DNA of 64,000 nucleotides from a virus, in IMG/VR virus record IMGVR_UViG_3300037424_001177, positions 95,229 through 159,228 of that record; one strand, written 5' to 3'. The notes beneath the pieces were generated by a model that saw only the letters and a list, made by a program, of their open reading frames with translations, searched no databases and was not told the DNA's origin. Both the position numbers and the translations under genes were made by a program. This document shows positions 13,463-53,972 of the stretch, one piece after another (position 1 is the first letter of the stretch; each line of letters begins with the position of its first letter).

Positions 13463-13777
13463 TCAAACTCCGGTGAGTTCCTTGGCTACAGCTAACCAAG
13501 CGAGGCGTTCGTCGTCCAACACGAGGTATGGTTTGATTCCCACAGTGCGCCTGGCGATGATTTCCGGCTTTGTCAGATGCTTGCCTTGAAGGAACTCGTC
13601 GCTGACGCCTACGGTCGGGTGTGTGTCCGAAATGCTGAATGTCTTTTTGCATTCGAGGCACAGATGCTTCTTGTGTAGCCGCGTCAACCAGGGCCCTATG
13701 TCGAGGTGCCTTGCTTCACAAGATGGACAGAATATGGGGCAGGGATAGGGTGGAACGATGTCAGAAAGACCCGACAT
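13463..13777 (-). CDS. Small zinc-finger protein
   Basis: CPSC..H and H.CLEC; likely ATG at 13777, because the longer ORF-track version runs through repeat cassettes. Confidence 0.55.
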   Translation of the reverse strand: MSGLSDIVPPYPCPIFCPSCEARHLDIGPWLTRLHKKHLCLECKKTFSISDTHPTVGVSDEFLQGKHLTKPEIIARRTVGIKPYLVLDDERLAWLAVAKELTGV

Positions 13778-13790
13778 GAAGTCTACCCAC

Positions 13791-13850
13791 GTTTCAATTT
13801 TTATTGGCCATTCGAAGGATGACGGATAAAGCTTAACCACTTTTAGCACC
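13791..13850 (-). repeat. Degenerate copy of the promoter + CRISPR-like repeat cassette (A3)
   Basis: Minus strand TGCTAAAAG...CTTTATCCGTCATCCTTCGAATGGCCAATAAAAATTGAAAC. Confidence 0.6.
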
Positions 13851-13855
13851 TGTTT

Positions 13856-13876
13856 TTTCAATTTATCCGCTGTCCT
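13856..13876 (-). repeat. Partial repeat copy (A2), 3' 21 nt
   Basis: TTTCAATTTATCCGCTGTCCT identical to 13953-13973. Confidence 0.9.
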
Positions 13877-13877
13877 T

Positions 13878-13952
13878 GTCACCGGGGCCCGATAAAGCGT
13901 CTGAGGAGTCACCACGTCAGGACCGTCTATCCGATATTGGTACTCGTTCCAG
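13878..13952 (-). repeat. 75-bp diverged duplicate of the 3' end of the Cys-rich lipoprotein gene (spacer-like segment)
   Basis: 67/75 identical to 14052-14126, ungapped. Confidence 0.95.
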
Positions 13953-14032
13953 TTTCAATTTATCCGCTGTCCTAAGACCAACGGAAAGACCAATTTAGCA
14001 GAGTGGTCTTTCCGTTGCAAGTGTTGAACACT
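13952..14032 (-). CRISPR. Promoter + single CRISPR-like repeat cassette (A1), heading a mini-array
   Basis: TTGCAA(14020-14015)-17 nt-TAAATT(13997-13992) with TG extension, then CTTTCCGTTGGTCTTAGGACAGCGGATAAATTGAAAC (37 nt, hairpin + ATTGAAAC end). CRISPR nature is inferred. Confidence 0.6.
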
Positions 14033-16570
14033 CTAGAACGCCTGGTACGTAGTCACTGGGGCCCGATACAGCGTCTGAGGAGTCACCACGTCAGGACCGT
14101 CTACCTGATACGGGTATTGGTTCCAGTAGCCCCAGCTCAGCCAGTACACGTAGTCGTCGTCAGCGACATCGGCAATGACCGCGTAGGCTTGGTGCGAATA
14201 CCCTGTCCAATAGCCGCTCGTGAAGTTTCTCGTGTCCAGGTATTGATAGTTTGTGTAGATCAGGTCGCCTTTGCTGAACTGGTACTCGCTACCGACCCCG
14301 AGGCTTCCTGTGGTTTGAAAATGCAACAGATCGGCTGTCGCGTCCTCGGGGTAGGCGCCGAAGATGAAGTATTTGTTGTCGGAGGTCGCGATGATTTGGC
14401 CCGACTCCATTCTGATCAAGTCGACAGGCCAGTGCAGAGGTTGACCTGTAACAAGGAAACCATTTTCGTTGATGTATGTGGCGGAGAACGCTAACGAGGT
14501 CTCGTTTTCGATGGTTGACGGTATCGGCGAGGGGCCCGTCGTCGAGTGCTTCAACAACCCTGCGACGTAGGAAGGTTGGACGTTCCAGTAGTAGATGAAG
14601 TCTTCGTCGACGACAATTTTTGGTGGTATCCACCAAGTACCTGTGATTGCGAAGACGACTTCTCCGTACGACAGTGAATCAATTGGCGCACGGTAGAACG
14701 TCACGGTTCTGAACGGGTAGCCGATCGGATCGCAGCCATTGCCAACCCCGTAACACGGTCCTTCCTGGTCCTCGTTGTGCCAGTAAACGTGTGTCGAGTT
14801 CTTCGTGAGGCGCTGGACTAAGCGTCCACTATAGACTTGCGTGCAGTTGAGCGGATCTGGAATCGTTGTCGCGCAGCGTATGATTTCGGACGTATTGGCG
14901 CCGTTAGAGACTGATCCTTTGATGATGTACAGGTGTTGCCCAGCCGCTAATATGCCGCCGATGCCAGTGTTGATGTCGAAACTCGTGATGAGTTCGGACG
15001 CGCTTCCGTCCTTGGGCATTTTTCGAACAATGGCTTGATTTGCGTCGTAGTCGTATTCGGAGGTGTAGAGGTTGTTCTCGTCTTGGGTCAGACCTTGCCA
15101 TCCACTGCTCCCCCCACCTGGATGGACCGCAATCGGTTCGATCCCCGGGTACTCGCAGGTCCCGTTGAGGCATTGGCCGCCGTTGCACGCGAGCCCACAC
15201 ACGCCGCAGTTCGTGTCGTCGTTCTGGATGTTTGTTTCACATCCGGGAGCGGCCGTGCAGTCAGCGAAACCTTGGATGCAGGTGAAGCCGCATCCTTCGA
15301 CGGCGCCGACACAAATTGGATCAGCGTTCTCGGGTGTCGCCGTGCAAGCGTCGCCACACGACGTGCAGTTGGTCGAAGAGCCGAACGTGGTTTCACATCC
15401 TGGAGCAGCCGTACAGTCGGCGAAGCCAGTCACACAGGCGGTGCTACACACGCCAGCCCCTGAGCAGATTGGCGCCGTGTTCGGATCGACCGGACACGAG
15501 ACGATCGAGCCCCATTCTCCCGTAGCGTCGCAAGTCTCAGTCGCAGAGCCACTGCAACGCATCGTCCCTGGCTCACAGTTGCCCGTACAGGCTCCGTTCA
15601 GGCAGGCGTAGGGGCAAGTTGTCGTTGGCGGCTGCCAAGCCCCCTGGGTGTCACAAGATTCGATTCCGAGCCCGGAGCAACGTAGGTCTCCTGGCTCACA
15701 CGTCCCGGCACAGACGCCGTCACCGTCGCAAGCGAATTCACAGTCAGTGTCCGGGATCCATTCCCCGTTCGAGTCACAAACTTCGACGGTCGGCCCTCCG
15801 ACACATCGCTTGGTTCCGGGGATGCATTCCCCGGTACAGGAGGCCGTGCCCGATTCCTCTTTGCACACGAAGTCACAAATGTTGGTCTGGACAAATAGAC
15901 CTTGTCCGTCACACAAGGCAGTGATCAGGGTCATGGTCAGGTCGGGAACTTGTAGGCACGCGTTGGTCCCAGGCACACATACGCCTGTACATGCACCGTT
16001 TTCGCAGCCGAAGGGACATGATTCAGTAGACCATTGTCCGAAGGCGTCGCAGATCTCGTGTTCCCCTGTGTTGAGCGTACAGCGAGCGTCTTCGGGAACA
16101 CACTCACCGATGCATCCGAATTCGTTGTCACAGGCGAACGGACACGTTTCGGTTGGGATCCATTCCGAGCCGTCTTGGCGACAGGATTCGAACGCGGAGC
16201 CGTTGCACTGGGTCGTGCTTGGTTCGCAAAATGTCGTCGCAGGTGAGCCAGCTGTTCCTGTTCCTCCGATGCCAGTCACTCCTGCGCTTCCGCCAGGGGA
16301 GCTGCCACCAGATCCACCAGAACCGCCTAGGTTATCGGCACCCGCGTCTGGCTCAGGTGTGGTGACGGGATCCGTTCCACTTTGAGAGCCTCCAGAACTT
16401 GCGTTTATAGCGGGCTCGAGTTCGGGCGGAATAGGGGCGGAACCCGGTATGCCGATTTGCTTCGGCCCGTAGAGGCTTTCTCCGCAACCTGCGACAGCGA
16501 GCAAGATCGCGAATAATGTGCCAAATCTGGACGGGCAGGTCTTCCGGTTACCTTTGAAGTCGTGTACCAT
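14033..16570 (-). CDS. Cys-rich lipoprotein with Gly/Ser linker, tandem Cys repeats and C-terminal beta-propeller (myxobacterial type)
   Basis: Lipobox LAVAG-C; repeated CPFAC..G.C.G.C.PG..RC units; CETN...D..NCG.CG..C; C-terminal VYW/IYY blade motifs. Confidence 0.75.
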   Translation of the reverse strand: MVHDFKGNRKTCPSRFGTLFAILLAVAGCGESLYGPKQIGIPGSAPIPPELEPAINASSGGSQSGTDPVTTPEPDAGADNLGGSGGSGGSSPGGSAGVTGIGGTGTAGSPATTFCEPSTTQCNGSAFESCRQDGSEWIPTETCPFACDNEFGCIGECVPEDARCTLNTGEHEICDAFGQWSTESCPFGCENGACTGVCVPGTNACLQVPDLTMTLITALCDGQGLFVQTNICDFVCKEESGTASCTGECIPGTKRCVGGPTVEVCDSNGEWIPDTDCEFACDGDGVCAGTCEPGDLRCSGLGIESCDTQGAWQPPTTTCPYACLNGACTGNCEPGTMRCSGSATETCDATGEWGSIVSCPVDPNTAPICSGAGVCSTACVTGFADCTAAPGCETTFGSSTNCTSCGDACTATPENADPICVGAVEGCGFTCIQGFADCTAAPGCETNIQNDDTNCGVCGLACNGGQCLNGTCEYPGIEPIAVHPGGGSSGWQGLTQDENNLYTSEYDYDANQAIVRKMPKDGSASELITSFDINTGIGGILAAGQHLYIIKGSVSNGANTSEIIRCATTIPDPLNCTQVYSGRLVQRLTKNSTHVYWHNEDQEGPCYGVGNGCDPIGYPFRTVTFYRAPIDSLSYGEVVFAITGTWWIPPKIVVDEDFIYYWNVQPSYVAGLLKHSTTGPSPIPSTIENETSLAFSATYINENGFLVTGQPLHWPVDLIRMESGQIIATSDNKYFIFGAYPEDATADLLHFQTTGSLGVGSEYQFSKGDLIYTNYQYLDTRNFTSGYWTGYSHQAYAVIADVADDDYVYWLSWGYWNQYPYQVDGPDVVTPQTLYRAPVTTYQAF

Positions 16571-24973: not shown

Positions 24974-27887
24974 AGACGACGACCTCTTGAGTTTTTTGGG
25001 ACTCGTCGAAACTCCCAAAAAATCCGAACCAAAAAAGGCAATGACTCCTATTGCGGTGGGAGGTAACGCCGAAGCATTTCTAGCGTTGCAGAACGACATT
25101 GCGGACAAGGTCAAAGAAACTTCTCTACGTAAACGGTGGATGAAGTTTCATCGTTTCACTTTGGTGAAGACGGTCGAGGAAGTTCGTGCTTTGGTAGACC
25201 GTGCGCTAGCACATGGCCGCTGTTCCCTGGATCTTGAAACTGGAGGATTCGACAACCGCATTGACTACGTCGACGGGCGTCCGAGAACCAAACATCAAAT
25301 TGTAGGGTACGCCATTTCAGTTCGCGGACACGGACACTACATTCCGGTGCGTCACCACTACGACGCCAATTACGAGGAGCGTGACCCAAACGTTCCTGTT
25401 GAGTCCGTGGAGCAAGAGATCACACGACTTTGCCGAGCATCCCAACCTGTCTTGACTCCGGAAGGGTTAGCCGACGATCCGTTAGGATCAAAGGCAATAC
25501 AAGAACCTGGAAAGGTCATCGTCTATTTCGCCAATGCCAAGTTCGACCAGGAGTTTCTGTACCCTGTTACCGGCATCGACTTCTGGCATCCGTCGAGCTT
25601 TGAAGACGCGGAGCTTGCGATTTATGCTGTGCACTCTGACGCTGATCTCGGCTTGAAGGACAACGCTCTACGGTTTCTCAAGATCAAAGACCCTGAGACG
25701 AAGGAATACGTCCCGTATGAGATGATCAACTACGACGAGCTGTTTCCTCCCAACACGCCTCGTAGGGAGCGCAAGATTGCCACGCGCTATCCTGACGACG
25801 ACAGTGACATCGTCGTCTACGGCTGCTCGGATGCTATTTGCACCGAATTGCTTTGCGAGCATCGCAAGACGGATTGGGAACACACGCAGCCCGGTCTGGA
25901 GTATGATTATCGGGAGGTCGTCAGCGCTGTCATCGAGTCCAAGTACACGTTCACGTATCGTCTGGAGAAACAGACTGTACAGGTGATTCGTGTCATGGAG
26001 CGAAACCGCTCCAAGATTGATCGGGCAGAAATCCAAAGACTGTTAACTGAGGCTGAGGCCGAACTAGCGACGTTACTGACGGAAATACGAAAGGTTGGGA
26101 TAGCGCGTGACAGGACCTTGTTCGCGGAACTGAACCCAGGATCGCCGAAGCAATTGTCGGATTTCTTGTTCTCGGAAAGAGGACTTGATCTAAAACCGAA
26201 ACCGAATTTCACGGAGGCTAAGCAGCAATACGAGACCAACGCCAAGGTCCTCGAGAAGCTCGGTGACGCCCCAGGGGCCTCTAAGGTCCTGACCGACATC
26301 ATCAAGTACAAGCAAATCGACAAGATCAAGGGCACCTATCTACAGGGGATGTTGGATACGTGTGATGACCAGGACCAACTGAGGTACAAGTTCAATCAGT
26401 TGGGGGCCATCACAGGTCGATTTACTGCACCCCAAGGTGATACTAGCGACGGCTACGCGGGAATCCCAATTCAGGGGATCCCTGTTCGAGACGATCCCAA
26501 AAAACCCAAGGTCGCACATTCGCTGCGGCGAGCCTTCATCGCACGTGACGGCTACACCTTGGTGAAGTGCGACTACTCAGGGCAAGAGCTTCGAATTTCC
26601 ACCAATCTGTCTGGCGAGGACGTGTGGATCAATGAGTTTTTGCACGGCACTGGCGATATCCATACGATCACAGCCAAGAACATCTTCGGTCCACACATCA
26701 CCAAGAAAGATGAAGTCGAGCGAGACAAAGGCAAGCGCGTCAACTTCTCCATCTTGTATGGAGGTGGGATCAAGGCTGTTCAACGGAACGCAGGATGTGC
26801 GGAGCATGACGCTGCTCGCTGGATCGAACAGTTCCTAGCGGGGGTGCCCAAGATAGAGCAATGGATCAAGAAGCAACACGCGTTTGTCAAAGCCAACAAG
26901 GGTGTCTATTCGGCATTCCGTCGTTGGATTGAGGTTCCTGGTGCGGCCATCAAAGAGGGGGATCTTTCGTGTCAACGGTGTGGGCACTGTTTTACCCCGA
27001 AGAAAGCTGAGACAGAACCTTGTTCAAATTGCGGAGAGAAAATACGTCTAGCCGTAATTGACAAGAAAGAAGCCTGGTCAAGAAAGGGCTCAGCCGAACG
27101 CGAGTCCGTTAACTACCCTGTGCAGGCCACAGGAGCTGACATCATGAAAGTTGCTTTGGTGCTCCTCACTAAAGCATTTCGCAAGCTCAATTGGGACCGG
27201 TATTACGATCAGAATTGGAACCAACTCGGAGACGACCGGGTTCGTATGATTCTGACAGTGCACGACGAAATCGTGTTCGAGATCAAGCATCAACATTTGA
27301 TGGAGGTGATTCCTGTCGTCATTGAGCTCATGGAATATCCGAGTCAGCTGCTACAATGGAAAGTCCCTTTAGTTGTCGATGTCTCACTGGGCCTGAACTG
27401 GGGCAGCAAGATCGCGTGGGACAAGGTGATTTCCAAGAAGACCCCTGTGCCAGAGTGGCTGGTGGAGTTCGTGACTCCAGACGCTTTGCCTGAGAAGATA
27501 CCAGCCGGTCTACCACTGGTCCCGACGATTTCGTCAACTGCGACGACTTTTACTCCGCCTGCTGCTTCTGTCTCGACGGTTCGTGCCGCGTCGCCGGTAG
27601 ACCCCTTGCCAAAGACCGCGACAAATGGTATCCAAAAACCAGTCGCGAAAAAAATTGCTCGATTCGTACTGTGCCAGACGTACCTCACAGAAGCTTCTGT
27701 GAGACTGACCTATGAGGCGGTGGCTGGATCGCTCCAACCTGGAGGGGATGTGTTATTGTGTCTGGTCGATCAGCACGATAACGTGCTGATCGACCCTTTG
27801 GAGAAACCGATACCGATTGACCCTGTATGTTTTGGTCACAAGATGGCGGATCGCGGGTTGGGTCCTGTAACTTACGTGCTGACTTGA
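24963..27887 (+). CDS. polA: Family A DNA polymerase with 3'-5' exonuclease
   Basis: ExoI DLETGG; TGRF; motif A CDYSGQELR; motif B KRVNFSILYG; motif C TVHDEI. Confidence 0.93.
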   Translation: MASEDDDLLSFLGLVETPKKSEPKKAMTPIAVGGNAEAFLALQNDIADKVKETSLRKRWMKFHRFTLVKTVEEVRALVDRALAHGRCSLDLETGGFDNRIDYVDGRPRTKHQIVGYAISVRGHGHYIPVRHHYDANYEERDPNVPVESVEQEITRLCRASQPVLTPEGLADDPLGSKAIQEPGKVIVYFANAKFDQEFLYPVTGIDFWHPSSFEDAELAIYAVHSDADLGLKDNALRFLKIKDPETKEYVPYEMINYDELFPPNTPRRERKIATRYPDDDSDIVVYGCSDAICTELLCEHRKTDWEHTQPGLEYDYREVVSAVIESKYTFTYRLEKQTVQVIRVMERNRSKIDRAEIQRLLTEAEAELATLLTEIRKVGIARDRTLFAELNPGSPKQLSDFLFSERGLDLKPKPNFTEAKQQYETNAKVLEKLGDAPGASKVLTDIIKYKQIDKIKGTYLQGMLDTCDDQDQLRYKFNQLGAITGRFTAPQGDTSDGYAGIPIQGIPVRDDPKKPKVAHSLRRAFIARDGYTLVKCDYSGQELRISTNLSGEDVWINEFLHGTGDIHTITAKNIFGPHITKKDEVERDKGKRVNFSILYGGGIKAVQRNAGCAEHDAARWIEQFLAGVPKIEQWIKKQHAFVKANKGVYSAFRRWIEVPGAAIKEGDLSCQRCGHCFTPKKAETEPCSNCGEKIRLAVIDKKEAWSRKGSAERESVNYPVQATGADIMKVALVLLTKAFRKLNWDRYYDQNWNQLGDDRVRMILTVHDEIVFEIKHQHLMEVIPVVIELMEYPSQLLQWKVPLVVDVSLGLNWGSKIAWDKVISKKTPVPEWLVEFVTPDALPEKIPAGLPLVPTISSTATTFTPPAASVSTVRAASPVDPLPKTATNGIQKPVAKKIARFVLCQTYLTEASVRLTYEAVAGSLQPGGDVLLCLVDQHDNVLIDPLEKPIPIDPVCFGHKMADRGLGPVTYVLT

Positions 27888-27895
27888 CGCCATGG

Positions 27896-27981
27896 TTTCA
27901 ATTTATCCCCCATCTAACGAAGACGACGGAAAACTCAACTTAGCAGAAGTAATCTTTCGTCACAAGCAACTCCTTACTTTC
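27896..27981 (-). mobile_element. Promoter + single CRISPR-like repeat cassette (B), 11-bp flanking duplication
   Basis: TGACGCCATGG at 27885-27895 and 27982-27992; TTGTGA-17 nt-TAAGTT; TTCCGTCGTCTTCGTTAGATGGGGGATAAATTGAAAC. Confidence 0.75.
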
Positions 27982-27988
27982 TGACGCC

Positions 27989-28513
27989 ATGGCGAAGCAA
28001 GACTACCTCCGGCTCTGCAACGACCACAATGTCTCTCACGAGGACTTCACGTTGCAGTTCTGTTCTCGTTGTCAGCAGGCGGAGTGCTCTCGCAGTCAGC
28101 ATGGAAGATCCAGATTTGATCAGCGCGTCCTCTCCTGGGAGAGTCGTCTCTTTACGGGGGTGTCTCGCATGTCCCAAGACGACAGCCGGTACTCTGAAAT
28201 CACGGCCAAGCATTTTGTCGAGGTCGAGCAGCCCAGATCAGAGTGGGTGGATCCTAGGGAAGTCCCTTCCACGACGACTATCTCGATTCCTGCGCCCAAT
28301 GTACATACTGACGTTTCGGAACCTGAACCGGTTGTACAGGTGACCGACCTTGACCCGGTTGCACGGATCCCCAGTTACAACACACCTGTGCGCCAAGGCC
28401 AAATGATCGGCACGCCGATAACAACGCCGAGCGTCAAGGCTGATCCGTGGGAAGCCCCAATCAAGAGCAATGAGCGGATTGTGAAGCCTGGAGCCAAGAT
28501 TAGGTTTCAGTGA
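27989..28513 (+). CDS. Hypothetical protein with N-terminal Cys motif
   Basis: C..F...FCSRC...EC.RS; ATG lies in the duplicated 11-mer. Confidence 0.6.
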   Translation: MAKQDYLRLCNDHNVSHEDFTLQFCSRCQQAECSRSQHGRSRFDQRVLSWESRLFTGVSRMSQDDSRYSEITAKHFVEVEQPRSEWVDPREVPSTTTISIPAPNVHTDVSEPEPVVQVTDLDPVARIPSYNTPVRQGQMIGTPITTPSVKADPWEAPIKSNERIVKPGAKIRFQ

Positions 28514-44962: not shown

Positions 44963-45034
44963 GGAGGTGTAGCTAAATGGTAATGCAACGTGCTTTTAAC
45001 ACGTAGATTGCAGGTTCGAGCCCTGTCACCTCCA
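44963..45034 (+). tRNA. trnK: tRNA-Lys(TTT)
   Basis: Cloverleaf, loop CTTTTAA. Confidence 0.9.
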
Positions 45035-45040
45035 CTTGAT

Positions 45041-45113
45041 GGGTTGCTAACTCAACAGGTAGAGTAGCAGGTTCTTAACCTGAAAGTTCCGAGTTCGATT
45101 CTCGGGCAGCCCA
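45041..45113 (+). tRNA. trnK: tRNA-Lys(CTT)
   Basis: Cloverleaf, loop TTCTTAA. Confidence 0.9.
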
Positions 45114-45122
45114 CAGTTCGTA

Positions 45123-45196
45123 TTCCAGGATCGGCTAATTGGTAGGCCACGTCGCTCTGAACGACGGAACGCTGGTTCGATTCCAGCTCCTGGAAC
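45123..45196 (+). tRNA. trnQ: tRNA-Gln(CTG)
   Basis: Cloverleaf, loop CTCTGAA. Confidence 0.88.
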
Positions 45197-45312
45197 TGAG
45201 ACTTCAGGTCTCTTCAAAAGTCCTTTCGAGGACCTTGCTTTTTGACAATTCGTGTTTTTTCACTCGTGTGGCAGATCGGTGCCCACCCAGGTACCGATCT
45301 GCCCACAAACTT

Positions 45313-45388
45313 GTCCCATTAGTCTAGTGGCTCAGGACGCTGCCTTCTCAAGGCGGTAGCGACGGTTCGAATCCGTCATGGGACGCCA
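45313..45388 (+). tRNA. trnE: tRNA-Glu(CTC)
   Basis: Cloverleaf, loop TTCTCAA, CCA end. Confidence 0.92.
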
Positions 45389-45389
45389 T

Positions 45390-45473
45390 TGTAGGGTCGC
45401 GTAACGGTAGCGCACTCGGCTGTTAACCGAGCGAGGAAAACCTCATTTGCAGGTTCGAGTCCTGCCCCTACAG
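45390..45473 (+). tRNA. trnN: tRNA-Asn(GTT) with long variable arm
   Basis: Loop CTGTTAA; extra GAGG-AAAA-CCTC arm. Confidence 0.85.
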
Positions 45474-45917
45474 CTAGACCTTGCCCTTCTTCCAAACGAG
45501 TTTTTGTGCCGCCTCCCGAATGATGCGGAGCGTTGTGTCAGCTTGCTCTATCCGACCGTCGGACCGGAGTTCTTGCTCGGCCCGTTTCAAGTAGTTGACT
45601 TGGGCTTGAGCCAGCTTGGCCCGAACGTTAGCTCCTGAGTCATCCGTTCTGATTTGTGTTTCCTGCAAAATGCTCTTGGGCAGGACAGTGACGACCGTGT
45701 CGTACTTTTTGAGAACGGTTTCAAGCTGCGGCATTTCGTAGGCTACGAGATCCAAATTCTCCCCGAACCCTCGTGTAGTCGGGATGATCGATCCGTCGGC
45801 CGTTTCCTCGATTCTCCACTTAGTTTTGTTCCAGAGGAGCGAGAACCTACTTCCGTTGACTGCGTTGTCCCAACGAGCTGTTTTATAGCGCTGAACGACG
45901 CGGGCCGGGCTGTCCAT
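45474..45917 (-). CDS. Hypothetical protein with RVxxRY N-terminal tag
   Basis: MDSPARVVQRYKTA; AAGGAAG RBS. Confidence 0.6.
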   Translation of the reverse strand: MDSPARVVQRYKTARWDNAVNGSRFSLLWNKTKWRIEETADGSIIPTTRGFGENLDLVAYEMPQLETVLKKYDTVVTVLPKSILQETQIRTDDSGANVRAKLAQAQVNYLKRAEQELRSDGRIEQADTTLRIIREAAQKLVWKKGKV

Positions 45918-45944
45918 ACTTCCTTGGTTTTGACAAGTATTTTC

Positions 45945-46020
45945 GCGGGTGTCACCTCAATGGCGAGGTCGTTGCCTTCCAAGCAAATGTCGGCCGGTTC
46001 GATTCCGGTCACCCGCTCCA
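45945..46020 (+). tRNA. trnG: tRNA-Gly(TCC)
   Basis: Loop CTTCCAA, TCCA end. Confidence 0.9.
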
Positions 46021-46096
46021 AAATGTAAAATATTGACTTGATCGTGTTTTGGATCGTAGGTTTCCATTTTGGGGAAAACCAAATGAGATACCACAC

Positions 46097-47353
46097 ATGA
46101 AAACCATCCAAATCACACTCGCCGTCGCCCTACTTTTTGCGTGCTCAGGCGCACCTAACCAACGAGTCCCACAAGATGTCGAGGTGGTCACACAGGCACT
46201 CAGCGACTACGCTATCACTGCCACGGTGATCGACAATCCTGCGGCCGGGCTCACACGGACCAAGCACACCGTCCAGCAGGGGACAGATCCTCTGAACGTG
46301 TTTGGCGTGACCCGCGTCAAGTCTTCGTACTCACACAAGCCGGTCATTCTTCACGGACCATTTGGATACGACTACCGATGGTACGAGCTCACAGAGACGA
46401 CCAACTACCGGAAGTCCTTTCTAGGCTCCCTCGCGACGTTAGGGTTCGATGTTTGGGTGATCGACGACAGGTTGTCGAAGCAAGCCCCAGGGACTTGCGA
46501 AGTCACTGGTTGCCTAGCGATGGGCGACTGGACTGTGCAGACTAGGGTCGACGACGCAGAGTTCGTGAGAGGCCTTGTTCTTGGTGCCTACGGCTTGAAC
46601 CAGAAGGTCGTGATCGGGGGCTACGTCGGTGGCGCCATGTTCGCACAAGCGACCGTCAACGCGTTCCCTGACCACTACGCGGGCTTGTTCCTTTGGGAGG
46701 GCTCGATGGTGGCGGATTCCGCCCAACAGGCGTTCTCGGCACCCAACTGTGGGCTCCTACAGTTCGTCACCTCTCTCGGGATCTACTCTGATCCGACTCC
46801 CCAAATCTTCGCGTTACTGTTCCAACTGAAGCAAGCTGACCCAACAGGGATCTCGCCAGTGCCTGGGATCCCTGGACTTGAGTTCCTAGCTGCCAAACTC
46901 GCTGAGCTGGGGATCGTGAACGCGACGAATGATCAGGTCTTCTACGTGGTCAGCACGCAACATTTGAACAATCCCAACTGGCCGACGCCAAGCTTTCACT
47001 TCCTCGCCGGTGACTCAACCGGTGTCGACTTCGCTTCAGAGCCTCGCTACCTCAAGATTGGTGGCATCGTGGACGCCTATGCCAGCCTGACCACAATCCG
47101 GGACATCACGTGCGGCCTGGCAGGCGATACGACGTACACGGACAACCTAGCGGCCTTCGAGGGCAAAGTCTTGGCGCTTGGTGCGCATGGCGGGTTCGGT
47201 GCTGAGCTTGAGTTCACGGAAGCCGCTTACGAAAACGCGGACTACGACGTGTTCGTGAACGAGGACTTCGGCGAGAGCGATCGCTTCTTCAATCCACATC
47301 GCTTCTTGCTCGCAGACGTTCCCTTTGCTATTTGGGCATCGACAGTTTTTTAA
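46097..47353 (+). CDS. Alpha/beta-hydrolase-fold lipoprotein
   Basis: Lipobox LLFA-C; ILHG, GFDVW.ID.R; elbow reads GYVGG. Confidence 0.65.
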   Translation: MKTIQITLAVALLFACSGAPNQRVPQDVEVVTQALSDYAITATVIDNPAAGLTRTKHTVQQGTDPLNVFGVTRVKSSYSHKPVILHGPFGYDYRWYELTETTNYRKSFLGSLATLGFDVWVIDDRLSKQAPGTCEVTGCLAMGDWTVQTRVDDAEFVRGLVLGAYGLNQKVVIGGYVGGAMFAQATVNAFPDHYAGLFLWEGSMVADSAQQAFSAPNCGLLQFVTSLGIYSDPTPQIFALLFQLKQADPTGISPVPGIPGLEFLAAKLAELGIVNATNDQVFYVVSTQHLNNPNWPTPSFHFLAGDSTGVDFASEPRYLKIGGIVDAYASLTTIRDITCGLAGDTTYTDNLAAFEGKVLALGAHGGFGAELEFTEAAYENADYDVFVNEDFGESDRFFNPHRFLLADVPFAIWASTVF

Positions 47354-47406
47354 CCGTCAGACGTTGAGAGGCTACCAGGTTGCCCTACCGTTAGGGCTAA
47401 TTGACC

Positions 47407-47865
47407 CTAGTCGACGATCCCCATCAGGAAAGCTTCCTCTTCCGACTCCTCGACAACAATCACAGGCTGAGTGTTTGGGATCCCATAGTCCAGGGTCCCA
47501 GCTCTCAGCTCCGTGAGGAGCTGAATTCTCCCCATGTGGTTGCCGAGAAGATCTCGGATTCGCCGCGCCTCAGGCGTTCCGCGTTCGAGGGCATTCTCTT
47601 TGGCTACTTTAGTCAACATCACCCAAGTCGTGGCAGGACCGTCCCCGTCGGCTGTCGTGAATCCCACGTCTCGGTCCTTGACTGAATTGATGGGAAGAAA
47701 GCACTCTTTGGGTCCGAGCCTGTGCTGACGCACAGCTTCCAGAAGCTCGAAAATGTTGTCGTATTTCAATTTTATCCGCCACCCAATGAAGGCGATGGAA
47801 AACAACTTAGCAGAAGGAATCTTGTGTCACAAGTGTTCTCACTCGAAAATGTTGTCGTAGATCAT
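47407..47865 (-). CDS. Hypothetical protein interrupted after codon 8 by cassette C (may restart at an in-frame TTG in the cassette)
   Basis: Removing cassette plus one duplication gives MIYDNIFELLEAV..., with ATG 1 nt after the upstream gene's TAG. Confidence 0.6.
47764..47841 (-). mobile_element. Promoter + single CRISPR-like repeat cassette (C), 18-bp flanking duplication
   Basis: CTCGAAAATGTTGTCGTA at 47746-47763 and 47842-47859; TTGTGA-17 nt-TAAGTT; TTCCATCGCCTTCATTGGGTGGCGGATAAAATTGAAA. Confidence 0.78.
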
Positions 47866-47866
47866 C

Positions 47867-48175
47867 CTAGCGTGGGCCCGGTAGCTTAGGCGCCTTCCGA
47901 GAGTAGTCGCGAGTGTCTTGGGCCGACCAAGTCTGGTTAACGATGCCCGCAGCGTGGTAGAGAGCTGAGGATACCCTCATTTCTTGACCCATCTTTTCCG
48001 CAGCGGTTCCAAGACTCCAAACCGCTGAAAACAAGAGACGCTTCGGGTTGCCGCTACCTTTAGCGATCCTCTTGAGAGCTTCGATCGCCGCTTGAATGTC
48101 TTCGACAGCTTCGGCCGACGGCTTCGCGGCCTCTTTCAAGGAGCGGAACCGGGCTACGACTCGTTTGGCTTCCAT
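47867..48175 (-). CDS. Small protein with RVxxRF tag
   Basis: MEAKRVVARFRSLKEAA; GAGGT RBS. Confidence 0.65.
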   Translation of the reverse strand: MEAKRVVARFRSLKEAAKPSAEAVEDIQAAIEALKRIAKGSGNPKRLLFSAVWSLGTAAEKMGQEMRVSSALYHAAGIVNQTWSAQDTRDYSRKAPKLPGPR

Positions 48176-48477
48176 GTCTTTAGTACCTCAAAATGTCCCA
48201 TCAGATCTTCTTCGCGTACCAGTAGGCCTTCACAAAGTCCCCGAGGTCGGAGCCACTCCACAGCAGATTGCCACTCGGTGCGCGGGGTGTAGAACCTGGG
48301 TCCCTTCGCGCTGACCACAACCGTCGTGTTTTTCTCGCCCTTCAAAATCTCGTCGTTCGAATTCAAGCCGTAACCGTACACAGCTAATTGTTTTTCAGCC
48401 AAGGCCATTTTTTGGGGAGCCAGCTTGGTAGCGGCAACCAATGCCTGAAATCGGGCTACGACTCGTTTGGCTTCCAT
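48154..48477 (-). CDS. Small protein with RVxxRF tag
   Basis: MEAKRVVARFQALVAA; first 26 nt identical to next gene. Confidence 0.6.
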   Translation of the reverse strand: MEAKRVVARFQALVAATKLAPQKMALAEKQLAVYGYGLNSNDEILKGEKNTTVVVSAKGPRFYTPRTEWQSAVEWLRPRGLCEGLLVREEDLMGHFEVLKTWKPNES

Positions 48478-48479
48478 AC

Positions 48480-49079
48480 CTAGCACTTCCGATAAACACT
48501 ATGGACGAGGCCCTCAAGCATCGACGCCTTGAAGTCTGCGTTCCGGACAAGTATGGAGGTCTTTTCTGGGTGAGCGGCATCGAATCGCACGTAGTCGCCT
48601 TCCTTGCGGTAGTACCTGACGCTGATCTCATCACCAACGCGTAAGCAAACCAAGCACCCAGAAGTAATGAAGGCACCGCGTCGTTGAACGAGCAAATAGT
48701 CTCCATCTAGAATCCCTGATCTTTCGAGTGCGTCTCCGCGCATCAGGAACCCGACGACAGGCTTGTTGATCATTGAGGAACTGACTTGGATAGTATCGAC
48801 AACGTTCCCTTCTTCGAAAGTTCGCGAATAAACTTTGACCGTTTGAGTTTCCGACACTGTGGTGCTTTCAATGAGCTTGATCCCGCGACTCGCGCCTTGA
48901 CGTGTACGCTGGATGTGGCCTTTGCGTTCGAGTGCGTCCAGGTGTTGACTGATGCCGTGCGTGGAGTGTAAATCTAAAGCGACACAAAGTTCTCGCAGGG
49001 AAGGCGGGTAACCGAATTCCCTGATACGATCCCGAACGACGTTCAGGACCATTTCTTGTCGCCTGGTGAGTCCGATCAT
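48480..49079 (-). CDS. lexA: LexA-family repressor lacking autocleavage residues
   Basis: LT.RQ, GYPPS.REL, HL.ALERKG.I, SRGI; S24-like domain GDAL/GI.DGD. Confidence 0.85.
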   Translation of the reverse strand: MIGLTRRQEMVLNVVRDRIREFGYPPSLRELCVALDLHSTHGISQHLDALERKGHIQRTRQGASRGIKLIESTTVSETQTVKVYSRTFEEGNVVDTIQVSSSMINKPVVGFLMRGDALERSGILDGDYLLVQRRGAFITSGCLVCLRVGDEISVRYYRKEGDYVRFDAAHPEKTSILVRNADFKASMLEGLVHSVYRKC

Positions 49080-49113
49080 GCGATATCGTCAGGTGTAACA
49101 CCGTGTTTCAAAT

Positions 49114-49184
49114 GCTGCGTGACGCGATTGGATCGCGACCTCTCTGTCTAAGAGGCGAAACGGGTTCGATTCCCGTACGCAGCG
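49114..49184 (+). tRNA. trnD: tRNA-Asp(GTC)
   Basis: Loop CTGTCTA, GTTCGA. Confidence 0.82.
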
Positions 49185-49186
49185 CC

Positions 49187-49279
49187 GGCCTAGGATCCCG
49201 GGGTGGCGACCGGGTGTGATATTGCTGACGTGCGCACGGTAGGCAGTAGAGCAGGGCGTAGAAGCTACGCAGGGCCACA
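49187..49279 (+). ncRNA. Putative structured, tRNA-sized RNA
   Basis: Closing GGCC/GGCC stem plus three hairpins; no canonical tRNA motifs. Confidence 0.35.
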
Positions 49280-49384
49280 ATATTTTACGTGATTCCCAGG
49301 TTTTGGGAGCAAAAACAGGAGGTATCTATGATGTTGATGATTTTCTGAATACCGGCCCTTGGGGGAGGGCCCCGGTCGGTGTAA

Positions 49385-49792
49385 GTGGCGTACATGCTCA
49401 CAACAGCTGACCAGTTGGTACTGCACGGACTAGGAGACTACGTTCTCCAAAGCCAGTGGATGGCGAACGAGAAGTCAAAACAATCACTCGTAGCCTTCGT
49501 GCACGCGCTCACCTACACGTTGCCGTTCTTTTTGGTGAGCCAGAATCCGTCGGCACTTTTTGCGATCTGCGGCACACACTTCGTGATCGATCGATGGCGC
49601 CTCGCCAAGTACGTGTGTTGGACCAAAAACTTCTTGGCACCACCGGGCTCCAATCGCCCTTGGTCTGAGTGTCGCAGTACGGGCTACCCAGACGACAGCC
49701 CTCCTTGGTTGAGTGTGTGGTTGTTCATCATTGCAGACAACCTCATGCACGTGGTGTGTAACGGACTGGCTCTCAAGTATCTCAACTTTTAG
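49385..49792 (+). CDS. DUF3307-family membrane protein
   Basis: H.LGDYVLQS.WMA..K, HAL.Y, THFVID, DN.MH. Confidence 0.8.
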   Translation: MAYMLTTADQLVLHGLGDYVLQSQWMANEKSKQSLVAFVHALTYTLPFFLVSQNPSALFAICGTHFVIDRWRLAKYVCWTKNFLAPPGSNRPWSECRSTGYPDDSPPWLSVWLFIIADNLMHVVCNGLALKYLNF

Positions 49793-49861
49793 AGGTGAGG
49801 CTAAGGTAGCCGGGGAGCCTCCAAAACTCCTGCCGAGACGGTTCAATTCCGTCCACCTCTG
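49791..49861 (+). tRNA. trnW: tRNA-Trp(CCA)
   Basis: Loop CTCCAAA, GTTCAA. Confidence 0.8.
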
Positions 49862-49862
49862 C

Positions 49863-50093
49863 TTAGGGACACAACTCCAATCTTTTGGCACAAGACAGGT
49901 CTTCGTTGTGCGGACCTTCACACACGTCTTGTAAACGGTACTTGAATTGTTCTGCTCGTACAACACAGCGCACGTCGACCTTGTCTTCTTGGGCTCGGTA
50001 GGTGTGGATGCAATAGGCCACAATGCCGGCATCGGCAAGGAGGACGAGGCCCCACAACATGAGCGTCAGGGTCTTTGGGCTGACAATGGGCAT
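49863..50093 (-). CDS. Small membrane-anchored Cys protein
   Basis: N-terminal TM, Cys-rich tail. Confidence 0.4.
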   Translation of the reverse strand: MPIVSPKTLTLMLWGLVLLADAGIVAYCIHTYRAQEDKVDVRCVVRAEQFKYRLQDVCEGPHNEDLSCAKRLELCP

Positions 50094-50115
50094 GACAAAT
50101 TGTAGCACAAGTTTC

Positions 50116-50188
50116 GGTGCTCGACGGTCGGGTTGACCTGATTCGTCTGATAAGCGGATCGTGCAGAGTTCAAGTCTCTGGAGCACTA
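50116..50188 (+). tRNA. trnI: tRNA-Ile(GAT)
   Basis: Loop CTGATAA, GTTCAA; atypical D arm. Confidence 0.75.
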
Positions 50189-50227
50189 CTACTGGAGGTC
50201 ATCGCCTTGCCGCCACGCACTGTCTAC

Positions 50228-50614
50228 TTACAGTTTCACGAGTCCGTCGAGCATCTGCCGAGTCGAAATCTCGTTTCGCCAGTATTGAAGCAAGATCACC
50301 CTGTTCAAGTTGACGAAGTCGATGACCTGCTTTTTCAGCTTGCCGGGAAGAGTGCCGATAACCCTCGGAGGTTTTGTGATCGTGACCGAAGCCGCGTCCG
50401 ACAACCCCTCTTTGGTGATTTTCGTGCCCGGAATGATCTTGACCCTAGGACCGTGCTGACTCTTGGTTCCGACAAACTCACCGGAGGATACCCAAATAAC
50501 CGCATCCGCCACGCCGGTGTCAACCGGAGGAAGGTTGGACATCGCTTCGAGCAGGAATCGAGCGACGATCTTCTTAGGGTTGGGCTTACTTTGTACTGGT
50601 TTCTTGGCGGCCAT
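50228..50614 (-). CDS. DUF4160-like protein with KIxxRF tag
   Basis: KKIVARFLLEA then MSNL...TG...IWVS...HGPRVK...F+.LN...+L.YW. Confidence 0.6.
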   Translation of the reverse strand: MAAKKPVQSKPNPKKIVARFLLEAMSNLPPVDTGVADAVIWVSSGEFVGTKSQHGPRVKIIPGTKITKEGLSDAASVTITKPPRVIGTLPGKLKKQVIDFVNLNRVILLQYWRNEISTRQMLDGLVKL

Positions 50615-50677
50615 CGCGTCCTTGTAGGATCACACACTTTGAGCTGGTGAGCTAGCTCATTTTCATCTTCTCTCAGT

Positions 50678-51418
50678 TCACGTGGACGACGTGTCGGGAT
50701 GGTAGAAATCTCCAAGAGCCTGCAAGTAGATGTCGTGGTGCTCTGTGTCGAGTAACGCCTTGTCGTAGAATGTGATGCTCGCAACGTCGGCTTTCAAGAA
50801 GTTACCCATACCCCAAGGCCAACCACAGGATGCGCCGACACGAAAGTGTCCGTATTCGCCACCTGTTGGCGTCGCAGTGATGTGGTCGATCCAGTTGTCA
50901 CATGTAACGAGCTTGCCATTCACGTAGAAGTTGTTGATCTCTACTCCCGGTTTGTTCGGCCACATGCTGCGTGTCCAACCGAGTACGCAAGGCAGCGACG
51001 GCAAGATGGTTTTAGCCTTGGTAATTGAGTTGGTCCCCATCCCGTATTCAACGAACATCCCCAATTCGTTTTGGCCGACTTCAAAATGGTATTGTGTATT
51101 GGTCGCCTCGACTTCGCCGAGACCTGCGTGTGACACCAGGCACTGTTTGCGAGACCGATTGTGGTTTTTGATCAGACAAGCGAACGCACAGTTTGTTGCC
51201 CGATTCAAATCCGGGATCATGTTCGGGATCCAGAGACATGTGTCCCCGCCAAACCTAAACCAAGTGATCCCGCCGTCGTCGACGTATTGTTCTTTTCCGG
51301 TCTCGACTACGAGGTCTCTTGGTAGGTCTTTACGTCGACCACTAGTATCGACAAGTGATCCGTTCAGGACGTTGAGCACAGGCTCGTGACTGTTGTCGAT
51401 GTAGCGAATTCGACCCAC
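50678..51418 (-). CDS. Divergent LamG-like paralog
   Basis: L.DTSG, LVVETG.E.Y, LVSHAG.GE.EATN..Y, FYVNG, TPTGG..G.FRVG shared with the genes at 1-2779. Confidence 0.65.
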   Translation of the reverse strand: MGRIRYIDNSHEPVLNVLNGSLVDTSGRRKDLPRDLVVETGKEQYVDDGGITWFRFGGDTCLWIPNMIPDLNRATNCAFACLIKNHNRSRKQCLVSHAGLGEVEATNTQYHFEVGQNELGMFVEYGMGTNSITKAKTILPSLPCVLGWTRSMWPNKPGVEINNFYVNGKLVTCDNWIDHITATPTGGEYGHFRVGASCGWPWGMGNFLKADVASITFYDKALLDTEHHDIYLQALGDFYHPDTSST

Positions 51419-51450
51419 CGCCGCATTTTAACACAACTAATGACAGCGTG

Positions 51451-51891
51451 TCAAACCGTTGTGTCCATGCTCTTTTCGAATTCGGAAACGAACGTTTTCA
51501 ACTCCGAAACGGTTTTTCGTAGACCGCGCTCGTCTTTTTTCTTGATCACACCTTCAATCTTGGAAGCGATATTTTCCAAGTCACGTTTCAACAGCGGTGC
51601 ATCGGCTTGAAGTGCTTCCCAGTCAGGTTCAGTGAACGCAGAGGTTCGATCATAACTGTACATTTTGCGGACCCTTTCTACCGGCCTCAAATCCCTGATT
51701 AGTAGCCAGCGGTGGGTGCCCGAGACGTGAAGTCCTCTTGACTTAGCCTCTACAGTTATCTGATTTATCTGCTCTTTTGTGTACCCGTCAACGTCTATTG
51801 TTACTTCGCTCTTTCCTGGCTTCACGCTGTCTAAAATCCGGTCCAAGAGTGTGACCTGTCTTCCTCCGCCCGCGGCGTTGATTTGCGTCAT
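51451..51891 (-). CDS. Fused pair of small proteins; second starts at 51663 with MYSYDR tag
   Basis: Near-identical leaders TAGAAAGG(A/G)TC(T/C)GCAAAATG precede both ATGs, in frame. Confidence 0.55.
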   Translation of the reverse strand: MTQINAAGGGRQVTLLDRILDSVKPGKSEVTIDVDGYTKEQINQITVEAKSRGLHVSGTHRWLLIRDLRPVERVRKMYSYDRTSAFTEPDWEALQADAPLLKRDLENIASKIEGVIKKKDERGLRKTVSELKTFVSEFEKSMDTTV

Positions 51892-51936
51892 TTTGCAGAT
51901 CCTTTCTACTGAGGGTCTAGCCAATAACAAATTTTT

Positions 51937-52011
51937 CGGGGATAAGGCTCAAGGTGGGCCACTAGTCTTGGGAACTAGCGTCGGCGGGTTCGATTCCCGC
52001 ATCCCCGACCA
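51937..52011 (+). tRNA. trnP: tRNA-Pro(TGG)
   Basis: Loop CTTGGGA, ACCA end. Confidence 0.9.
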
Positions 52012-52019
52012 ACACCTTT

Positions 52020-52095
52020 GCCGGCGTAGCACTCTAGGGAGCGCACTTGCCTCGTAAGCAAGACCAGATCGGTTCGAATCCGTTCGCCGGCTCCA
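52020..52095 (+). tRNA. trnT: tRNA-Thr(CGT)
   Basis: Loop CTCGTAA, TCCA end. Confidence 0.9.
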
Positions 52096-52097
52096 CT

Positions 52098-52176
52098 GCT
52101 CCGTTCGTCTACGTTGGTTTAGGACAACTGCCCTTTCAAGGCGGAGAAGCGGGATCGTCGCCCGCACGGAGCACCA
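52098..52176 (+). tRNA. trnE: tRNA-Glu(TTC)
   Basis: Loop CTTTCAA, ACCA end; T-loop ATCGTCG. Confidence 0.85.
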
Positions 52177-52187
52177 AACATTTTCTT

Positions 52188-52263
52188 GGGGCCGTAGCTC
52201 AAATGGGAGAGCACTTGTCTTGCACACAAGGGGTTGAGAGTTCGAGTCTCTCCGGTTCCACCA
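52188..52263 (+). tRNA. trnA: tRNA-Ala(TGC)
   Basis: Loop CTTGCAC, G3:U70, ACCA. Confidence 0.92.
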
Positions 52264-52265
52264 AT

Positions 52266-52338
52266 GCCCCTGTAGCGCAATGGATAGCGCAGCACGCTTC
52301 GAACGTGTAGGTTGGGAGTTCGAGTCTCTCCAGGGGCG
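52266..52338 (+). tRNA. trnR: tRNA-Arg(TCG)
   Basis: Loop CTTCGAA. Confidence 0.9.
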
Positions 52339-52343
52339 CTTTA

Positions 52344-52430
52344 GTCGCTGTGGCGGAATTTGGCAGACGCACTTGCCTTAGAAGCAAGCGCCCTTGTGGT
52401 GTGGAGGTTCAAGTCCTCTCAGCGACACCA
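52344..52430 (+). tRNA. trnL: tRNA-Leu(TAG)
   Basis: Loop CTTAGAA, variable arm, ACCA. Confidence 0.92.
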
Positions 52431-52434
52431 ACTT

Positions 52435-52510
52435 TGCGGGGTAGGCTGACTGGTGAGGCACCGGTCCTACAAACCGGCTTAGGTTGGGGTTCGATTCCCA
52501 CACCCCGTAC
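52435..52510 (+). tRNA. trnV: tRNA-Val(TAC), atypical
   Basis: Loop CCTACAA (C33), C discriminator. Confidence 0.65.
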
Positions 52511-52583
52511 GAGCCTGATCCATCCGGTCGGTGGGCGCGATCTGCAAAATCGTGTGCACTGGGTTCAACTCCCAGCAGGCTCT
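52511..52583 (+). tRNA. trnC: tRNA-Cys(GCA)
   Basis: Loop CTGCAAA, U discriminator. Confidence 0.8.
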
Positions 52584-52832
52584 CTAGTTCTTTGGCGGCC
52601 TCAGGTCCTCGACTTTGGTCAAGGGTCCAATAAACTTCTTCATCGTTTCTTGGAGATCGTCTTCCGACTCTTTTGCAAACAGTAGGACGGAAGGCCCTCC
52701 TTCGATACCCAATTGTGTTCGTGTGTCGATTTTGATGGGTTGGTCCTCGAGCAGCTTCTCACAATTCATGCGAGACAGTCCGAGGATAATCAATGTCTGC
52801 CCATCGTCAGTACCCGCAACAGCTTTGATCAT
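52584..52832 (-). CDS. Hypothetical protein
   Basis: 82-aa ATG ORF between tRNAs. Confidence 0.5.
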   Translation of the reverse strand: MIKAVAGTDDGQTLIILGLSRMNCEKLLEDQPIKIDTRTQLGIEGGPSVLLFAKESEDDLQETMKKFIGPLTKVEDLRPPKN

Positions 52833-52854
52833 GTCGACTATCGTACGTCTTTCC

Positions 52855-52970
52855 GCCCTCGTAGCACAACTGGATTGTGCACCCGGCTACCCTTCCTTCA
52901 ATTCCCGCCCGGTTTCTACTGTTACTTGTCCGGACAATCAACAAAAATCTGTACTCCGAGGGGGACACCA
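52855..52970 (+). pseudogene. Disrupted tRNA-Arg(ACG)
   Basis: Good 5' half GCCCTCGTAGCACAACTGGATTGTGCACCCGGCTAC stops in the anticodon; CGAGGG..ACCA about 65 nt later. Confidence 0.55.
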
Positions 52971-52991
52971 AATCTTGGTGTCATTGTCGGC

Positions 52992-53790: not shown

Positions 53791-53870
53791 GGAGAGGTGG
53801 CTAATGGTGGCAAACCGTTTTGAAAACGGTCGCGGTAATTCCGTAGCGGGTTCGATTCCTGTCCTCTCCG
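53791..53870 (+). tRNA. trnS: tRNA-Ser(TGA)
   Basis: Loop TTTGAAA, variable arm, G discriminator. Confidence 0.85.
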
Positions 53871-53880
53871 CAAAATTAAT

Positions 53881-53966
53881 GGAGGTTGATGATCACTGGG
53901 TGATCCGCAGTTCGCTAAACTGATGGCACTTTCGGGTGTGGCGTTCGATTCGTCCGACCTCCGCCA
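53881..53966 (+). tRNA. trnS: tRNA-Ser(GCT)
   Basis: Loop TCGCTAA (C33), variable arm, GCCA. Confidence 0.8.
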
Positions 53967-53972
53967 ATTTTT

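Follow-up and report, generated by a model that had tools for sequence, protein, structure and literature searches.

An apparent CRISPR mini-array in a large phage genome is probably a local duplication beside a mobile promoter-hairpin-start-codon cassette

The subject of this study is a locus on the minus strand of a phage genome at which the end of a predicted lipoprotein gene is followed by a short repeat, a 75-nt variant copy of that same gene end and a partial second repeat. It occupies positions 13,856 to 16,570 of the analysed stretch of DNA (64,000 nucleotides, hereafter the window), which makes up the final 64 kb of a 159-kb IMG/VR virus record (IMGVR_UViG_3300037424_001177, positions 95,229 to 159,228; G000) judged to be about one third complete. 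An initial annotation had read this arrangement as a CRISPR mini-array. The analysis presented here suggests instead that it is probably a local duplication beside a mobile cassette composed of a promoter, a hairpin and a start codon, and that the duplicated fragment keeps an older allele of the gene. The comparison genome was a single relative, G001 (IMG/VR contig 3300036760_000522, 301,550 bp, with terminal repeats), whose flanking DNA is 87-92% identical to that of the present phage and which was the only relative returned from IMG/VR. JGI metagenomes, searched by protein and by a 28-base pattern, yielded no relative, and a collection of 5.8 billion proteins returned the window's own protein alone.

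The list of open reading frames (ORFs) places the lipoprotein gene (845 aa) at 14033-16570 on the minus strand, with its TAG stop at 14035-14033. The predicted product combines a signal peptide carrying a lipobox with cysteine-rich repeats and has no match among Pfam or PHROG families. The C-terminal half varies between the present phage and G001, the homologue of which is 67% identical over the last 388 aa; at the nucleotide level, identity ranges from 48 to 93% per 100 nt, giving a mosaic of conserved and strongly diverged segments. Close to the stop codon lies the resident copy (A; 14052-14127, minus strand, coding ...WNQYPYQVDGPDVVTPQTLYRAPV(T)) of a 75/76-nt segment delimited by a repeat search and a three-sequence comparison. 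The repeat search also located its displaced counterpart (A'; 13878-13953, minus strand), the "spacer" of the initial annotation, and the two form a 76-nt direct repeat of 89% identity.

Between the gene and A' stands a cassette copy, E1 (13952-14028, minus strand), recognized by nhmmer (E 7.8e-19), a seven-copy alignment and its folds. Reading along the minus strand, E1 consists of a -35-like TTGCAA (14020-14015), a 17-nt spacer, TGC-TAAATT (14000-13992), a hairpin at about 13984-13964, a GGNGGA-type box and TTG-AAA (13958-13953), the tail reading TTG-AAA-C at 13958-13952. A perfect 14-bp inverted repeat (14004-14017 / 13979-13992) overlaps both the promoter spacer and the 5' hairpin arm. The TTG of E1 opens a frame of 13 codons (13917-13958, minus strand) which passes out of frame through the copy and ends at a TGA. 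A' is followed, after one extra A, by R2 (13856-13876, minus strand), a re-copied cassette tail comprising the 3' arm of the hairpin, the GGNGGA-type box and TTG-AAA, and forming an exact 21-nt repeat of 13953-13973. This 21-mer has no further match in the window at up to three mismatches, and none in 100 shuffles. With its adjoining sequence R2 forms no cassette-like hairpin (z = -0.55), the 5' arm being absent. The reported placement of a 75-nt copy between a full and a 21-nt partial repeat therefore holds, in coordinates as in counts.

Downstream, the TTG of R2 (13861-13859) is in frame with, and opens, a 132-aa ORF, a zinc-ribbon-like gene (CPxxCPSC...CLEC; 13463-13861, minus strand) whose product is 86% identical to a G001 protein. 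As the homology between the two orthologues already starts 8 residues before the ATG at 13776, translation must begin further upstream, probably at the TTG of R2 or at either of two in-frame GTG codons just after it. A third, degenerate repeat had also been proposed here. A weak resemblance to the cassette, ending ATTGAAAC, does exist at 13791-13832 (minus strand), but the segment has no match to the cassette profile, and since the zinc-ribbon homology starts upstream of the ATG at 13776 it probably lies inside the coding region; its translation, ...KIETWVDF, can be aligned to the G001 protein. In G001, the corresponding locus holds neither cassette nor copy, and a 64-codon ORF is found between the lipoprotein and zinc-ribbon genes. 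This ORF (L007 4286-4480) is hydrophobic and probably encodes a small membrane protein; in the window, cassette and copy occupy its place. A search for a decayed cassette downstream of the G001 lipoprotein gene gave no significant signal (p = 0.81) and no profile match, and a longer duplication extending past R2 into the gene tail was likewise discarded, the local alignment being non-significant (p ~0.25-0.3).

Counted from the C at 13952/14126, A and A' mismatch at positions 8, 10, 15, 16, 21, 23, 58 and 70, which leaves A' matching the resident gene at 67/75 (a difference of 10.7%). The six clustered mismatches are those reported previously, with a numbering that here runs one base later (7, 9, 14, 15, 20 and 22 before), and their concentration within 16 nt is unlikely by chance (6/8, p = 0.017, permutation). 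Also borne out are the two peptides, WNEYQYRIDG for the copy and WNQYPYQVDG for the gene, and the synonymous nature of the two distal changes, which affect a Leu and a Pro codon. The G001 homologue ends WNEYQYQIDG... (WNEYQYQIDGPDVVTPQTLYRAPVTTYQVF) with no cassette after it, and agrees with the copy at six of the eight differing sites (8, 10, 15, 16, 23, 58), five of them among the six clustered ones, and with the gene at the other two (21, 70). Over the whole segment, G001 and the copy are identical at 70/75 positions (five differences), with a perfect match over the first 20 nt after the cassette tail, whereas the gene differs from G001 at 9/75. The earlier suggestion that the copy represents a relative's allele thus gains support from a genome without cassette and copy at this locus, in which the allele is closer to the copy than the resident gene is (70/75 versus 67/75).

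In a three-sequence comparison, six changes are private to A, two to A' and three to G001, and five of the six on the A branch fall at positions 8-23. The six changes in A against two in A' do not constitute a significant excess (binomial ~0.15). Since G001 matches the copy at six of the eight sites, it is the patch in the resident gene that appears to have diverged, and the copy, judged from these three sequences, appears to carry the older or relative-like allele. A diversity-generating retroelement as the source of the variation was rejected, as neither phage has an RVT_1 match and only 3/8 differences fall at adenines of the copy.

E1 is a member of a dispersed family of ~80-nt cassettes. 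The conserved tail motif occurs 12 times in the 159-kb record, eight times in one kind of context and then always on the minus strand, and searching this record with a profile of five copies recovers five full units of ~80 nt along with a 3' half-unit and the 21-nt fragment. Besides E1, the profile places full cassettes at window 27895-27974 (minus strand, between plus-strand ORFs of 974 and 174 aa), at window 47765-47841 (minus strand, its TTG at 47769-47767 opening a 120-aa ORF), at genome 75641-75723 and at genome 7125-7189, the last being common to G001. The aligned units share a -35-like TTGYRA (4/5), a 17-nt spacer, TGC-TAARTT, TTTCCGT, a variable loop, GGNGGA and then AAATTGAAA(C/T); the entire promoter-like TTGYRA / 17 nt / TGC-TAARTT arrangement is kept in 4/5 full copies of this genome. 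All copies adopt the same hairpin while differing in their inner stems, the consensus fold retaining nine pairs, one of which shows a compensatory change, and some copies carry extra upstream hairpins. A terminator-like site was not found in the cassette, nor a U-tract after the hairpin. Given this family of full units, the 37-nt "full repeat" of the initial annotation corresponds to the 3' half of a dispersed cassette and not to an array unit. Based on these features, we infer that the cassette is a portable expression unit combining a promoter, a 5' hairpin, a ribosome-binding box and a start codon, with promoter activity and use of the TTG being predicted from sequence.

A partial and a related element lie elsewhere in the genomes. 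A cassette 3' half (hairpin and tail, lacking the promoter box) is located at G000:C1:30982-31020, antisense inside a 264-aa plus-strand ORF. A TGC-TAGGTTGGG box followed by a different hairpin is common to both phages (G000:C1:71490 and G001:C1:204235) and may represent a related promoter with another leader.

Comparison with G001 revealed a considerable turnover of the cassettes: 4/5 full copies are missing at the matching G001 sites, and three are flanked by target duplications of 10-19 nt. At window 27896, the G001 flanks abut with an overlap of 10 nt and the 87-nt unit is absent, while the present phage shows an exact 11-nt duplication (27885-27895 and 27982-27992) which holds the stop codon of the 974-aa plus-strand ORF and the ATG of the next gene, both genes being intact. 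The cassette itself (27895-27974) points antisense into the 974-aa gene. At window 47764, ~77 nt are absent in G001, where a tail-like ribosome-binding box and TTG remain, and the exact 18-nt flank duplication (47746-47763 and 47842-47859) is a copy of codons 3-8 of the downstream gene. Within 47746-47859, the cassette is inserted after codon 8 of the 120-aa gene, leaving a remnant of ATG plus eight codons that ends at a TGA within the cassette; the present gene begins with MK.., read from the cassette TTG-AAA, and the G001 orthologue starts MR.. from the tail-like remnant. At genome 75642, 106 nt are absent in G001 and the flank duplication of ~19 nt has diverged. Two G001 cassettes (at 271.8 kb and 174.2 kb) are in turn absent at the matching sites of the present phage, and the focal cassette E1 has no detectable G001 counterpart. 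Small insertions with 10-19 nt of duplicated target are consequently the rule for this family. A transposon or miniature inverted-repeat transposable element was considered and rejected, as the aligned ends show no terminal inverted repeats by eye and the duplications vary in length (11, 18 and ~19 nt) instead of being fixed.

Each of the three co-oriented cases has a cassette TTG that shares the frame of a long ORF, namely those of 120 aa (47769), 132 aa (13861) and 181 aa, the latter being opened by the TTG of a degenerate plus-strand copy near 43927. The G001 orthologue of the 120-aa protein begins at the same TTG and shares 89% identity with it, and two of the TTG-opened ORFs have orthologues whose homology reaches the cassette-derived start.

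The reading that we favour as the probable one builds on the observed anatomy, the dispersed family, the empty sites and flank duplications, the in-frame TTG codons and the allele pattern. The cassette would provide a sigma-70-like promoter, a stem-loop with which the transcript begins at its 5' end, a Shine-Dalgarno-like GGNGGA and TTG-AAA; its copies would come and go between close relatives, leaving a duplicated target at the flanks, and where a gene on the same strand lies downstream, its TTG would serve as the start codon. At the focal locus, a 97-nt piece (13953-13857) would have been added at the 3' edge of E1, composed of 76 nt copied from the gene 3' end 174 nt upstream and of the last 21 nt of the cassette once again. 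Were these 97 nt taken out, E1 would lead into AAA-CAG-GTG... and its TTG would share the frame of the zinc-ribbon ORF, which is precisely the present context of R2, and the 21 nt of R2 are close in size to the other flank duplications (10-19 nt). As the phage replicated, template switching or illegitimate recombination, possibly involving co-infecting relatives, would most likely have caused this addition. Through the re-copied tail, the zinc-ribbon gene would again be provided with a ribosome-binding box and an in-frame TTG, and because the downstream gene's start is kept in this way, the insertion would lengthen the leader only and be tolerated. The non-coding copy would since have changed little and kept WNEYQY.IDG, the patch in the resident gene having changed in the meantime.

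Several observations weigh against this reading. The clustering of mismatches beside the cassette tail (p = 0.017) and the perfect 20-nt match of the copy to G001 are what a targeting model predicts, and with one relative alone for comparison the order of events is not fixed. All five full copies have the same genome orientation, whatever the strand of the neighbouring genes, and two of the five lie antisense between opposite-strand genes, where a promoter or start-codon role makes little sense; these two look like passengers. The promoter that had been placed after the lipoprotein stop stands as a promoter-like TTGCAA / 17 nt / TGC-TAAATT, but in a simple consensus scan the box of E1 falls below the threshold (8/12 matches, 9 required). 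Moreover, TGC-TAARTT is almost confined to the cassettes, for which reason it was also rejected as the general promoter of this phage. Finally, the cassette ends ATTGAAAC, 12 nt after the hairpin, as in the build of a type I-C CRISPR repeat, and G001 encodes Cas5d-Cas8c-Cas7.

An alternative that retains the same anatomy, and which we consider possible although clearly less likely, concerns the origin of the two alleles. Instead of an in-situ duplication followed by divergence, the gene end, the stop codon and E1 would have been acquired from a co-infecting relative through two crossovers, one homologous and the other illegitimate, and the displaced gene end of the recipient would have become the copy. 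With a difference of 10.7%, A and A' are indeed about as far apart as the present phage and G001 are genome-wide (88-92% identity), the A-branch changes are clustered, and the lipoprotein gene is mosaic, with conserved segments beside strongly diverged ones, all of which would suit an imported gene end. Such an exchange, however, needs an extra event for the 21-nt tail together with the loss of the recipient's gene tail and stop. In the G001 alignment, furthermore, the diverged patch stands as an island between stretches of identical sequence, and no donor for the resident QYPYQV patch was found elsewhere in either genome, in IMG/VR, in the JGI metagenomes or in the protein collection.

A CRISPR-based function was considered in two forms, both of which start from the end of the cassette. 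The sequence ATTGAAAC, which makes up the final 8 nt of the cassette, is the canonical CRISPR RNA (crRNA) handle, and a hairpin with a 12-nt tail is the build of a type I-C repeat. G001 carries a type I-C interference module (G001:C1 2668-10900) with Cas5d, Csd1/Cas8c, Cas7 and a 793-aa helicase, lacking cas1/2/4, in a region that lies outside the coverage of the present record. Its array consists of 11 identical 36-nt repeats with spacers of 35-38 nt and is followed by at least 16 units with a constant 14-nt tail, hairpins that differ and covary, and an irregular spacing of 30-205 nt. A solitary unit of the array-type repeat is situated on the minus strand at G001:C1:298021, beyond the terminal repeat at a distance of ~5 kb from the cas genes, which lie on the other strand. 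The cassettes resemble these repeats in having a stem-loop and an 11-12-nt single-stranded tail ending ..AAC, as well as hairpins that covary between units. They differ in that the stem is unrelated and the tail agrees at only ~7-8/12 positions, and in that the array units are 36 nt long with spacers of 35-38 nt, whereas the cassettes are scattered singly, each with its own promoter-like box.

The first form, which we regard as unlikely, takes the cassette as a promoter-driven solitary type I-C-like repeat that yields a guide RNA for inter-phage conflict. In type I-C systems, crRNA is processed by Cas5 (PMC10651486), and a Cas5d of phage or host would here cut before ATTGAAAC, upon which the 75-nt copy would guide Cascade to the WNEYQY-allele DNA of relatives, the resident gene being spared by its six proximal mismatches. 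In its wider version, the cassettes would be self-spreading solitary repeats whose downstream flank becomes a guide, arming the Cascade of phage or host against relatives with the older allele, a prospect we rate equally low. If true, a phage without cas1/2 would gain guides through cassette insertion or duplication. This proposal draws on the repeat-like build, on the G001 module of Cas5d, Csd1, Cas7 and helicase with an array and no cas1/2/4, on the single orientation of all full copies irrespective of neighbouring gene strand, on the upstream self-matches of the other cassettes, which at 10-19 nt are too short for targets, and on the identity of copy and G001 gene over the first 20 nt, where the resident gene is mismatched at 8, 10, 15, 16, 21 and 23.

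Further evidence, however, points away from it. The stem is unrelated to the G001 array repeat, the boundary unit R2 on the 3' side lacks a hairpin, and the insert, at 75 nt, is twice as long as a type I-C spacer. No Cas5d, Cas6, RAMP or Cas1 was detected in the present 159-kb record, itself about one third complete, no common protospacer-adjacent motif was seen before the would-be targets, and no spacer of the G001 array matches the present phage record. The transcript would be sense to the gene mRNA, so that DNA targeting alone could work, and the three in-frame TTG codons fit an mRNA leader. Targeting is also unnecessary to explain the alleles, as the same site pattern is expected of a non-coding copy that predates the change in the patch, as the C-terminal half of the gene is generally variable (48-93% per 100 nt) and the patch not unusually diverged, and as the imbalance of six versus two changes is not significant. 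The proposal that the resident gene escaped self-targeting in a seed region is for the first of these reasons no longer needed.

Virus-borne mini-CRISPR arrays have been described (Medvedeva et al. 2019, PMC6858448), and the focal locus shares with them a repeat-insert-repeat order adjoining a predicted promoter in a virus, as well as an insert that is closer to a near relative (70/75 to the G001 gene) than to the resident genome. In contrast to those arrays, the second repeat is a 21-nt fragment without a hairpin and the insert measures 75 nt; the repeat, moreover, matches no array repeat found and belongs to a dispersed ~80-nt family with a promoter-like box and a start codon. Two full-length repeats are not present, since the units share 21 nt only and R2 folds differently, and the insert of 75-76 nt compares with spacers of 35-38 nt in the G001 type I-C array. 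No Rfam CRISPR repeat family matches the cassette repeat even at E up to 10; arrays with cassette-like units were not found in IMG/VR, where the matches represent AT-rich prophage coding sequence; and among the 120 GTDB matches listed there was no stretch with multiple matches, all being single and taxonomically scattered. The mini-array interpretation was therefore abandoned in favour of a dispersed cassette tail, a non-folding 21-nt second unit and a 75-nt insert.

In the second form, which seems to us just as improbable, the cassettes would act as an RNA anti-CRISPR (Racr), that is, as highly expressed decoys of a host repeat that soak up Cas5/Cas7, with the flanks and the 75-nt copy as by-products. 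Viral solitary repeats directly behind a promoter form a described class, some members of which are RNA anti-CRISPRs (Camara-Wilpert et al. 2023, PMC10651486). The cassette shares with them the order of promoter and single hairpin-plus-handle with a tail ending ATTGAAAC, a viral setting away from cas genes and a predicted promoter directly upstream (the record-wide search covering Cas6, RAMP, Cas1 and Cas5d), and several copies would raise the dose. The defining feature of the class, however, is likeness to a real repeat of host or phage, and here only the architecture resembles type I-C: no resembling CRISPR repeat was found in Rfam, in IMG/VR or among the GTDB matches listed. A mimic of one host repeat would not be expected to have an inner stem that differs freely from copy to copy, as is the case here, and the cassette tail would double as a translation start, the in-frame TTG codons pointing to an mRNA leader.

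An assembly artefact, in which two strain variants were joined into a false tandem structure, is very improbable: the record is metagenome-assembled and an exact 21-nt repeat could confuse a short-k assembly graph, but both junctions of the copy (tail-copy and copy-tail) are novel joints that strain variation alone cannot create, and other cassettes show similar flank duplications with clean empty sites in an independent assembly.

The closest described analogue of the cassette itself is the PeSLs (promoter-early stem-loops), mobile regulatory cassettes of promoter plus stem-loop in T4-type phages that have been linked to indels between close relatives (Arbiol et al. 2010, PMC2839356; Comeau et al. 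2014, PMC4122927). Like these, the cassettes are small, dispersed and mostly intergenic, join a sigma-70-like promoter (17-nt spacer; predicted in the present case) to a conserved stem-loop, and mark indels between closely related large phages, PeSLs being thought to act via the phage's own recombination. In the present family, however, the hairpin follows the -10 box at the 5' end of the transcript, whereas the PeSL loop is of the terminator type and lies upstream of the promoter, and the cassette continues into a ribosome-binding box and a TTG start codon. Target duplications of 10-19 nt, as seen here, are not reported in PMC2839356 and PMC4122927 according to a word search, and the carrier is an uncultured huge phage instead of a T4-type phage. 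The cassette family is thus distinct from PeSLs by its order of parts, its built-in ribosome-binding box and start codon, and its flank duplications.

As to the wider genomic setting, 21 tRNA genes in three clusters on the plus strand (window 44963-54719) are consistent with a very large phage genome, and a Pfam and PHROGs scan of the genes neighbouring the focal locus names only a 211-aa methyltransferase-like gene. Outside the window, a 390-aa open frame contains a TnpB/Cas12f-like TNB domain (PF07282, 82 bits) at G000:C1:38632-38829; the frame is absent from G001 and may belong to an IS200/IS605-type insertion in the phage.

Discarding the mini-array reading removes a tempting false positive. 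As the tail is a canonical handle and G001 carries a type I-C module without cas1/2, the cassette family provides a good test case for distinguishing a regulatory cassette from a solitary CRISPR repeat, two possibilities that sequence alone cannot separate here. On the interpretation favoured above, a lineage of huge phages would possess a small portable expression cassette that moves from site to site, rewrites initial codons of genes and leaves scars of duplication behind. One of these scars would have frozen an older allele of a fast-changing lipoprotein gene, and would thereby offer a rare internal record of which side has changed.

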